DNA of 64,000 nt from the NCBI GenBank assembly GCA_016203665.1, contig JACQMJ010000004.1:4214-68213 (forward strand), read 5' to 3'. The stretch comes from Candidatus Sungiibacteriota bacterium (GTDB lineage Bacteria; Patescibacteriota; Minisyncoccia; Sungbacterales; SURF-37). A program made the translations under genes and the position numbers. Shown one piece after another: positions 19,774 to 20,767 of this stretch. The notes beneath the pieces were generated by a model. That model saw nothing but the letters and a program-made list of their open reading frames with translations. It ran no database searches and was not told where the DNA came from. The first letter of the stretch is position 1; each line of letters starts with the position of its first letter.

Positions 19774-19901
19774 GCGCATGGGCTTTTGAGACCATCGCGA
19801 GGCGCGTCGGCATGGTCTCCGGCAAAGCCGGAGCGACGCGCCGAGCGCTGGGTGAAGTTCCGTCGCTGGACGGAACGAACGCGTCAAAAAAGCCCGTGCG
19901 C
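19774..19901. repeat. structured intergenic element, copy 1 (rplC|rplD gap)
   Basis: 128 nt, closed by gcgcatgggctttt / aaaagcccgtgcgc. Shares the core ttgagaccatcgcgaggcgcgNcggcaYggtctc ... agcgacgcgccgagcgctg with 20641-20767. Confidence 0.85.
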
Positions 19902-19905
19902 TTGC

Positions 19906-20508
19906 CTATCCTCGTATTTCAACCAGCGTTCCCCTCCTCCCCGGTACTGCCCCCTTCAACGCGATCAACTGCCGCTCCGGGTCGACTTTCACGACTTCAA
20001 GGTTCCTGACCGTCACACGCTCGCCGCCCATACGCCCGGCCATGCGCCGTCCCTTGATGACGCGCTGCGGCCAGGTCGGACCAATGGAGCCGGGCTCGCG
20101 GTGCGCATGCTTGGTGCCGTGGGTGGCCGGAGCGCCGTGAAAGCCGTGGCGCTTGACCACGCCCTGGAAACCCTTGGCCTTGGAAATGCCGGCCACCTTC
20201 ACGATGTCGCCCGCCTGGAACTGCGTGAGATCAAGCGTTTCGCCTCGGCTCCTGCCGGACACGCCGGCTGCTTCGCGCACCGCCGCAAAAGAACCGAGGT
20301 CCTTCCATTCCCCGCGCTGCGGACCCGCAATGTTCTTCGGCTTGCGGCTGCCAAAACCAAGCTGCAGGGCGGCGTAGCCGTCCTTCTCCGGGGTCTTCTC
20401 ACGGATAACGGTCAGCGGGCCGGTCTGGATGATGGTGACCGGCACGGCGCTCCCGCCGTCCGAAAAGATCTGCGACATACCCAATTTTCGGCCCAGGAGA
20501 AATTTCAT
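19906..20508 (-). CDS. rplC: 50S ribosomal protein L3
   Basis: Start at MKFLLGRKLGMSQIF; 201 aa. Confidence 0.9.
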   Translation of the reverse strand: MKFLLGRKLGMSQIFSDGGSAVPVTIIQTGPLTVIREKTPEKDGYAALQLGFGSRKPKNIAGPQRGEWKDLGSFAAVREAAGVSGRSRGETLDLTQFQAGDIVKVAGISKAKGFQGVVKRHGFHGAPATHGTKHAHREPGSIGPTWPQRVIKGRRMAGRMGGERVTVRNLEVVKVDPERQLIALKGAVPGRRGTLVEIRG

Positions 20509-20640
20509 AACCTGCAACACAAATGCCGGAGACGCCTCCGGCACGACAAAGATGCGGAGCGTATCCTCAATACCTCACCGAAGGATATATCTCTTCAATT
20601 CCATACAACCGAGGATCCTGCTTCGCACATTGTGCTCGGC

Positions 20641-20767
20641 AGGGGAATGTGCATTTGAGACCATCGCGAGGCGCGGCGGCACGGTCTCTCGCGGAGCGAG
20701 AGCGACGCGCCGAGCGCTGAGCGCGTGCGCTGGAACGCACGCGCGGGTCGAAAATGCATATTCCCCT
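20641..20767. repeat. structured intergenic element, copy 2 (rpsJ|rplC gap)
   Basis: 127 nt, closed by aggggaatgtgcattt / aaatgcatattcccct. Same conserved core as copy 1, with different but still complementary peripheral stems. Confidence 0.85.

Follow-up and report, generated by a model that had tools for sequence, protein, structure and literature searches.

Twin structured palindromic repeats in the S10 operon of a Candidatus Sungiibacteriota bacterium and their relatives in other Patescibacteria

Two spacers of the S10 ribosomal protein operon in a 64-kb stretch of DNA from a Candidatus Sungiibacteriota bacterium (contig JACQMJ010000004.1; this whole stretch is called the window below) each harbor one copy of a structured element of ~147 nt. 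These twin elements, c1 and c2, are shown here to belong to a small family, not described before, of non-coding structured palindromic repeats of ~145-230 nt in the candidate phyla radiation (CPR, Patescibacteria), of which five loci in at least three genomes were found. Loci from other genomes carry numbers with the prefix L: L013 and L033 belong to a metagenome-assembled genome (MAG) labelled Candidatus Saccharibacteria, and L036 to an unrelated MAG. The copies are not orthologous, they are absent from five related operons, they combine a frozen core with covarying stems, and within operons they are uniformly oriented antisense to their hosts. On this basis, the reading that we favor, and whose chances we put somewhat below even, is that the elements form a new family of selfish structured repeats with few copies, which operons carry passively as hairpins between their genes. 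The sequence of the source genome was read within the window and copy counts for this genome refer to it; all structural statistics derive from five loci, of which four are reasonably independent.

Copy c1 (19764-19910, plus strand) is located in the rplC|rplD spacer and scores 159.8 bits with a covariance model of the family, and copy c2 (20631-20777, plus strand) is located directly 3' of rpsJ in the rpsJ|rplC spacer and scores 143.8 bits. The two copies are 84% identical over 92 nt and share two blocks that are exactly identical, GAGACCATCGCGAGGCGCG (at 19788 and 20657) and AGCGACGCGCCGAGCGCTG (at 19832 and 20701), each of which occurs exactly twice in the window where ~0.1 occurrences are expected by chance. 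An earlier note on this DNA, which had reported twin elements with a near-identical core in two enlarged gaps of the operon, is thus confirmed, also with respect to the gap sizes. The rplC|rplD spacer measures 165 nt, and the rpsJ|rplC spacer measures 264 nt when rplC is taken to start with the ATG at 20508 and 294 nt when the 190-aa rplC annotated in the public assembly is used. As judged from the predicted product of 200 aa (beginning MKFLLGRKLGM), which matches its relatives, the ATG at 20508 is most likely the true start. The elements had been located correctly by the note, but their closing stems run further than it had proposed (19764-19787/19888-19910 and 20631-20656/20752-20777) and include the upstream stop codons. 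In c1, the closing stem P1 pairs 19764-19787 with 19888-19910, comprises 24 pairs, of which three are G.U pairs on the plus strand, and has the rplC stop codon TAG (19906-19908, minus strand) within it. In c2, P1 pairs 20638-20656 with 20752-20770 (19 pairs), and a stem extension TGTG/CACA (20631-34 with 20774-77) shares bases with the rpsJ stop codon TGA (20773-75, minus strand). Folding of both strands of c1 and c2 in comparison to shuffled sequence gave z values of -7 to -9.

For the analysis of covariation, four sequences were aligned, namely c1, c2, a variant of c2 from an NCBI assembly, and the homolog from L013. With a three-way-junction fold, 96% of the alignment cells are paired and 11 pairs are changed on both sides, a number that was reached in none of 500 shuffles and that compares with 0-2 in slid controls. 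The covarying stems that had been described for the twin copies are therefore borne out, and at the level of sequence comparison the data support a long closing stem and a three-way junction. The closing stem P1 is free in sequence, varies between 17 and 29 bp in length, keeps its pairing, and has a U/A tract at its end, and it is followed by the short helix P1b, in which GAC pairs with GUC. Four motifs are conserved: M1 (UUYGAGACCAU), M2 (GGCAUGGU), M3 (CUGRG), and M4 (CGCUGG). Motif M1 (in c1 UUUGAGACCAU, 19785-19795, plus strand) forms part of the junction, where its GAC pairs with GUC at 19883-85 (P1b) and its CA with UG at 19849-50; c1, c2, and L013 have the same M1, and that of L036 is UUCGAGACCAU. 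The P2 arm (19793-19850, plus strand; 19793-19809 paired with 19834-19850) carries a bulge and the apical hairpin P2a and contains a tandem G.A/A.G and a U.C mismatch. The tandem G.A is present in both subtypes of the family (see below), and the flanking helices differ in length between these subtypes. In L036, lower P2 is wholly replaced with complementarity retained (GAUUCGGUC with GACCGAAUC). The bulge GCAUGGU (19810-19816, plus strand), which corresponds to M2 with a preceding G, is unpaired and is conserved in c1, L013, L036, and the third member of the window (E3), whereas c2 of the window has GGCACGGU. The apical hairpin P2a (19817-19833, plus strand) is CUCCGGC AAA GCCGGAG in c1, CUCUCGC GGA GCGAGAG in c2, and UUUCGCC GGA GGCGAAA in L036 and so displays compensatory substitutions. 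Motif M3 (19848-19852, plus strand) forms the 3' foot of P2 at the junction to P3, a hairpin (19857-19876, plus strand; stem 20721-20729 with 20736-20744 in c2) with a variable stem, and the conserved M4 (19864-19869, plus strand) spans the last P3 stem pair and the loop.

The pairings quoted in the earlier note, 19788-95 with 19812-19 (A:A') and 19801-09 with 19834-42 (B:B'), are correct, and from their interleaved order (A-B-A'-B') an H-type pseudoknot had been proposed. This fold did not stand up to the comparison. The A:A' pairing (GAGACCAU with AUGGUCUC) is not compensated by a Watson-Crick change in any member; it is mismatched (A.C) in c2 of the window, survives in L036 through two G.U pairs only, and has no counterpart in E3, where the partner sequence ACCAU is missing. 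For B:B', which corresponds to upper P2, one compensated change (U-A to G-C) was found. Formation of the A:A' helix would displace P1b, lower P2, and the P2a base, and these competing helices do covary; the base of P2a, for example, changes from CUC/GAG to UUU/AAA in L036. When A:A' was forced as a nested helix, not as a pseudoknot, the cost amounted to 10-15 kcal/mol in the c1-type copies. As far as the aligned sequences indicate, the pseudoknot is without comparative support and might possibly be a minor conformer.

Outside the S10 operon, a homolog of the twin elements was detected by a scan with a 19-nt core of one genome per species, in which 17 other matches were chance hits in G+C-rich genomes. 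The copy thus found in L013/L033 is 86% identical to c1 and 88% identical to c2 and, as c1 and c2 are 84% identical to one another, it is closer to each of them than they are to each other. Its neighbors are two convergent genes, one hypothetical and one encoding a PIN-domain toxin, and it lies outside the terminator-like hairpins of both flanking genes, that is outside both transcription units. At the orthologous locus of the relative L035, next to the counterpart of the gene beside the L013 copy, the element is absent. E3, a diverged third member (33973-34121, plus strand; 35.1 bits with the covariance model), follows directly after the stop codon of nrdJ (34117-37923, minus strand), which encodes a class II ribonucleotide reductase with an intein containing a LAGLIDADG homing-endonuclease domain, and it is located between this stop codon and the nrdJ terminator. 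Its closing stem measures 29 nt, its fold includes a three-way junction, and GGCATGGT is located 5' of a hairpin. The covariance model also identified a member in the rpmJ|rpsM spacer of L036 (4350-4578, minus strand), 5 nt downstream of the rpmJ stop codon and 23 nt upstream of rpsM. In this copy, P2 and P2a are wholly replaced by other complementary sequences and M1-M4 are retained. E3 and the L036 copy have in common the 14-mer CGAGCGGGCATGGT and GAGCGAG, which flank the apical hairpin; this places E3 firmly in the family and defines two subtypes. For most copies the distance to the stop codon of the preceding gene is 0-5 nt, and in four of the five the stop codon is abutted.

The element is absent from the S10/spc stretches of five related, Sungbacteria-like lineages (L028, L030, L031, L059, and L061/62), whose L3 proteins are 75-87% identical, as was checked by BLAST, by the covariance model with filters off, and by a motif scan. 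Both junctions were covered in L030, L031, and L061/62, where the spacers are short or occupied by other, unrelated palindromes; L028 is without an intact rpsJ, and L059 starts at rplC. A metagenome scan with a two-box pattern yielded five chance matches, all in coding DNA, scans of viral contigs yielded nothing except 21 chance matches, mostly to one phage gene and none of them fitting the covariance model, and blastn searches of phage and plasmid collections yielded no match. Dozens of copies in unrelated contexts, which the earlier note had named as the mark of a generic repeat, were thus not encountered: the contexts are indeed unrelated, but the loci number only five.

This distribution bears directly on the proposal that the elements are autoregulatory operators in S10 operon mRNA, at which L3/L4 or S10 would bind to a pseudoknot that mimics their rRNA site. 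Two copies flank rplC and another is located in the rpmJ|rpsM spacer of L036, as might be expected for such a site. However, the element is absent at the same junctions of three related operons and from all five stretches examined, other copies follow nrdJ or are flanked by a hypothetical gene on one side and a PIN toxin gene on the other, and no model of an rRNA or a ribosomal leader is matched even at E<=10. Moreover, the favored strand is antisense to the mRNA, the pseudoknot pairing A:A' shows no covariation, and a separate conserved leader already precedes rplC. Because the element is absent at orthologous junctions, occurs in unrelated contexts, has no detectable rRNA similarity, and is favored on the wrong strand, the feedback operator suggested in the earlier note is rejected; it is largely refuted, and we consider it very improbable.

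To compare the two strands, fold energies of the element in its plus orientation and of its complement were calculated for each copy. Energies were -89.8 kcal/mol (element) and -76.1 kcal/mol (complement) for c1, -90.8 and -85.8 for c2, -105.3 and -92.1 for L013, -102.2 and -95.0 for E3, and -104.0 and -88.4 for L036. The core defines an orientation that corresponds to the plus strand of the window, and this orientation is the more stable one in five of five copies, by 5-16 kcal/mol. In the best folds of the four copies that were compared, 4, 2, 4, and 6 G.U pairs were counted on the plus strand and 2, 2, 0, and 0 on the minus strand. Four copies are situated downstream of a gene, either inside its operon or before its terminator, and in each of them the favored strand runs antisense to the host genes. 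The asymmetry of G-T pairs that had been noticed in the closing stems of the twin copies, and from which it had been suspected that the folded strand is antisense to the operon, is accordingly real and general. From the GC skew, the minus strand is the leading strand. Mutational bias was considered as a source of the G.U asymmetry and rejected, as the direction predicted from GC skew, and likewise from transcription, is the reverse: deamination bias linked to replication or transcription would place G.U pairs on the mRNA-sense strand, the opposite is seen, and selection on the plus strand is the simpler reading. Most of the other clear stop-adjacent hairpins of the source genome, namely those at rpsG|fusA, orf86|tuf, cobO|comEC, and rplF|rplR, are more stable in the sense direction.

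A strand preference of this kind would also be expected if the elements were a new structured non-coding RNA transcribed from the plus strand, antisense to the host operons, and acting as an antisense regulator, as a protein-binding RNA, or as a small ribozyme with M1-M4 as its active or binding core. The junction, bulge, and loop core is invariant while all helices covary, so that conservation fits this explanation as well as it fits selfish repeats. The G.U pairs and the advantage of the plus strand in five of five copies, the tandem G.A in both subtypes, the position of the L013 copy alone between two facing terminators, and the failure to match a known Rfam family are all in line with it. 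On the other hand, no promoter-like site was seen upstream on the plus strand and there is no consistent U-tract terminator, and four of the five copies would be transcribed head-on into very highly expressed operons, which is a poor location for a gene. The examined stretches of five related genomes contain no copy, which means that the element is not essential, and c2 of the window has a mutated M2 and a broken pair. We regard such an antisense RNA as an unlikely explanation that nevertheless deserves to be taken seriously.

Alternatively, the strand that matters might be the sense strand, and the elements might act as mRNA hairpins that are cut by RNase III or that block 3'-to-5' exonucleases and thereby set the ratios of S10, L3, and L4, with repeat-like spread being secondary. 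The sense strand does fold at -76 to -95 kcal/mol with stems of 19-24 bp, the stop codon is abutted in four of five cases, hairpins are placed directly 3' of stop codons at many junctions of the source genome and its relatives, and E3, located between the nrdJ stop codon and terminator, is part of a 3' untranslated region. However, selection is visible on the opposite strand, with the non-Watson-Crick pairs becoming A.C in the mRNA sense, and most other clear hairpins of this genome favor the sense direction. A simple barrier or RNase III site requires neither a conserved core nor a three-way junction, and the L013 copy lies outside both neighboring transcription units. Taken together, a sense-strand mRNA hairpin of this type appears doubtful to us.

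Searches for known RNAs, signals, and coding content gave negative results at the elements. With Rfam 15, cmscan at E<=10 over 19000-21400 gave best scores of ~20 bits against thresholds of 50-61 and no match to an rRNA or a leader; E3 and the L036 member had no match at permissive E-values, and at gathering thresholds nothing was detected at the element sites of the whole window, although a 23S-like fragment elsewhere in it was detected. The Rfam search that the earlier note had recommended therefore ended without a matching family. No promoter-like site was seen at the elements on either strand, and neither c1 nor c2 was called as an intrinsic terminator on either strand; a T5 run after the extended stem is present in c2 only, on the plus strand. 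In the sense strand, the conserved ACC-AUG-CC opens a short open reading frame in all copies, and six of seven substitutions fall on third codon positions. A small peptide encoded there was nevertheless rejected, since the frame is not kept in L036: the frame through M1 differs, giving MPARPNHGLERIYFT in L036 and MPTRLAMVSK... in c1. A protein search with all six frames joined, aimed at spurious open reading frames annotated over other copies, found nothing. Readthrough from L3 into L4, or an in-frame fusion of both, was considered as well because the frame through c1 is open; as c2 uses a different frame of the element and as G+C-rich DNA has few stop codons, the open frame through c1 is attributed to chance, and this candidate was rejected.

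Selfish spread of structured repeats, the reading favored here, would work as follows. The elements would spread, or would once have spread, via a single-stranded intermediate with the sequence of the plus strand of the window, either RNA or single-stranded DNA (ssDNA), and an enzyme acting on this intermediate would read its shape and M1-M4 rather than a terminal sequence. Reading of shape and motifs would explain the frozen core, the covarying stems, and the presence of G.U pairs on one strand only. In operons only the antisense orientation is seen, so that the mRNA would carry the weaker complement, which is predicted to form a hairpin of still -76 to -95 kcal/mol. This hairpin is probably tolerated or mildly useful, and it may serve as a barrier to 3'-exonucleases or as an RNase III site in the same way as other stop-adjacent hairpins might. 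Among the four functions offered in the earlier note, a selfish structured repeat fits best in view of the unrelated contexts, but an enzyme that could mobilize it is not found in the window.

Several observations weigh against selfish spread. In the 64-kb window, which holds three copies of the element, genes for a transposase, an integrase, or a reverse transcriptase were not found. The closing stems (GGCAGGCGCATGGGC, GGCAGGGGAATGTGC, GCGGAGCGGGGGCGTGTGC, GCTAGCGCGGCGCCGC, and GTGAAATATATTCTTTC) are not conserved terminal inverted repeats as in miniature inverted-repeat transposable elements (MITEs), and target-site duplications, read by eye from the sequence, are inconsistent, with AGTGATG (7 bp) at L013, AATGTG (6 bp) at c2, and none visible at c1, E3, and L036. 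Only five loci are known and none is near-identical to another, so there is no sign of recent transposition. The frozen core, the conserved junction and loop nucleotides, and the covarying stems are a signature of functional RNA too. Finally, three of the five copies are located in ribosomal protein operons; this possible enrichment could mean more than tolerance, although the sampled loci are biased towards such operons. In a bolder proposal, which we consider rather unlikely, the elements would represent a new functional class of structured RNA or ssDNA signal in CPR bacteria, read opposite highly expressed operons, with a core made up of the three-way junction and its GGCAUGGU, of the tandem G.A, and of the loop CGCUGG. 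Such a class might for example be a small ribozyme or a protein-binding antisense RNA, and placement at stop codons of ribosomal protein operons would be part of its working.

The genomes of CPR bacteria are tiny and few regulators are known in them, yet the most conserved operons of these bacteria are full of strong stop-adjacent hairpins, of which the present family is the most elaborate. If the elements are selfish DNA, mobility would depend on shape rather than on terminal sequence in a group whose mobile elements are poorly known, and spacers of ribosomal operons can be safe harbors. If they are a working RNA, a new and directly testable motif is at hand. In either case, an enlarged spacer in a ribosomal operon should not be taken for a feedback site.

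All genes around the twin elements are carried on the minus strand, in the order tuf (21184-22377), rpsJ (20773-21114), rplC (19906-20508), rplD (19087-19740), and rplW (18658-19080). The source genome has a G+C content of ~60%, and the closest L3 proteins belong to organisms named Candidatus Sungbacteria or Patescibacteria. The remainder of the rpsJ|rplC spacer (20523-20613, minus strand) is separate from the element and constitutes a leader that is conserved in relatives. It contains a box, CTCGGTTGTATGGAATTGAAGAG (20591-20613, minus strand), and, just upstream of the rplC start, a terminator-like hairpin, GTGCCGGAGGCGTCTCCGGCAT, that is followed by TTTGTGTTG (20523-20544, minus strand). The leader is kept upstream of rplC in four related genomes (the window, L028, L030, and L031), in which CTCGGTTGTATGGAATTGAA[GT]AG, a variable hairpin, the terminator-like hairpin, and the rplC start follow each other in this order. 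Possible roles are those of an internal promoter or of a genuine attenuator or leader serving the L3-L4 segment of the operon.

Comparison of the window with the matching NCBI assembly GCA_964559385.1, which comes from the same organism, revealed 8 single-nucleotide polymorphisms (SNPs) over 12.3 kb. Differences are clustered at 20676, 20682, and 20692 (within 17 nt, in c2) and at 25826, 25832, and 25841 (within 16 nt, in rpsL), and this clustering suggests strain mixtures or short gene-conversion tracts. One of the three SNPs in c2 breaks a P2 pair in the variant of the window and another alters M2 (GGCAUGGU), a possible hint of decay in place.

Upstream of rplC, relatives of the source genome contain other palindromes. 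Another one with a long stem, with the arms CCCCGCACCAATTTTGC and ACCCCGCACATAAATTTACA, is present in L030 (7339-7484) and L059 (200-301), and L030 and L031 have in common a TTCATTTGCCGGC...GCCGCAAATGAA element. From these sequences, the junction upstream of rplC is evidently one that has been invaded several times independently.

Further hairpins were observed at other spacers. A second family of hairpin repeats, with the stems GGGGTTGACCCCGTTAGAGCG and CGCTCTAACGGGGTTGACC, is represented at 22462-22551, where it begins immediately 3' of an 86-aa gene whose stop codon it follows and which precedes tuf, by a partial copy at 26049-26080 near rpsL, and by a clear relative in the unrelated MAG (L036 3796-3894). 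The 86-aa gene itself (22554-22814, minus strand), located between fusA and tuf, has no Pfam match and is 72% identical to a protein of L030; counterparts at the same place in relatives have 101-106 aa in L030 and L061. An AT-rich 74-nt hairpin with TACGAAA-like repeats (GGCTACGAAATACGAAA...) is located immediately 3' of the rpsG stop codon (25040-25113), and its stem sequence is also found after rpsL in a Sungbacteria genome (L061 4577-4648 and L062 3308-3379). Downstream of cobO, a 115-nt G.U-rich hairpin begins 3 nt after the stop codon and folds far better in the sense direction. Together with AT-rich repeat palindromes in rpsN|rpsH and rplF|rplR and a (CTTCAGC)n tandem repeat in rplV|rpsC, it makes up a group of spacer structures located at 32526-32641, 13766-13871, 12298-12397, and 16883-16973. 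Stop-adjacent hairpins look like a genome-wide habit.

Three more features of the window were recorded. Between topA and parB, 51963-52063 (plus strand) scores above the Rfam gathering threshold for positions 2120-2221 of bacterial 23S rRNA, the L1-stalk region; this fragment is distant from any rRNA or rplA gene, and a perfect 16-bp palindrome comes after it, at 52116-52148. An RNase P RNA gene of class A is located at 589-1079 (plus strand, 155 bits), which explains an apparent 142-aa open reading frame at 664-1092 and an inverted repeat at 698-799. Two paralogous proteins with a PaaX-type, Cas2-like central domain are encoded at 1243-1911 and 7944-8516 (minus strand), and neither a CRISPR array nor other cas genes are visible in the window.

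Among known systems, the ERIC/IRU repeats of enterobacteria and the Correia/NEMIS repeats of Neisseria (PMC3184786) are like the element in being non-coding and 100-160 bp long, in having a long terminal inverted repeat that forms a hairpin, in residing in transcribed intergenic spacers, including those within operons, and in being patchy among relatives, and effects on mRNA processing or stability are likely in both cases. However, in MITEs of the ERIC/Correia type, the termini are conserved and are read by a transposase (PMC3184786), whereas the element has free termini and a frozen interior. Unlike these repeats, it also has a very low copy number and an inconsistent target duplication, is uniformly oriented antisense to host genes, and forms a three-way junction instead of a simple hairpin. 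Small self-cleaving ribozymes and orphan RNA motifs (twister, hammerhead, and hatchet) share with it a variable closing stem, covarying helices, a few invariant junction or loop nucleotides, and scattered, low-copy, non-orthologous sites; unlike them, it has no Rfam ribozyme match and no recognizable catalytic core, and much of its invariant sequence is base-paired. Integron attC sites of 57-141 nt are also recognized by their folded shape over sequence, have a single active strand that is antisense to the cassette gene, and start at or right after the upstream stop codon. In contrast to attC sites, the core sites RYYYAAC/GTTRRRY are not present at the ends of the element, its interior is conserved rather than variable, and its hosts are universal ribosomal protein genes in canonical order, not cassettes, with no integrase found in the window.

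The repetitive extragenic palindromes (REPs) and REPINs that are mobilized by RAYT (Y1) transposases (PMC3337134) provide a further parallel, since they are extragenic palindromes that are recognized as single-stranded hairpins, whose structure is strand-specific, which reside at the 3' ends of genes, and which spread selfishly under structural constraint. REPs are 20-40 nt long and REPINs are symmetric doublets (PMC3337134), whereas the element, at 145-230 nt, folds into an asymmetric three-way junction. Copies of REPs and REPINs number in the tens to hundreds and are accompanied by a RAYT gene (PMC3337134), whereas neither a RAYT/Y1 gene nor a GTAG-type head was seen in the window. The favored strand of the element is the leading-strand template, whereas IS200-like chemistry would be expected to use the lagging-strand template. 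As its termini are not conserved, its known copies are few, no transposase was found in the window, and attC core sites are missing, the element is assigned to no named family. By analogy, it would seem to resemble most the intergenic palindromes of the MITE type, that is ERIC and Correia/NEMIS, and REP/REPIN.

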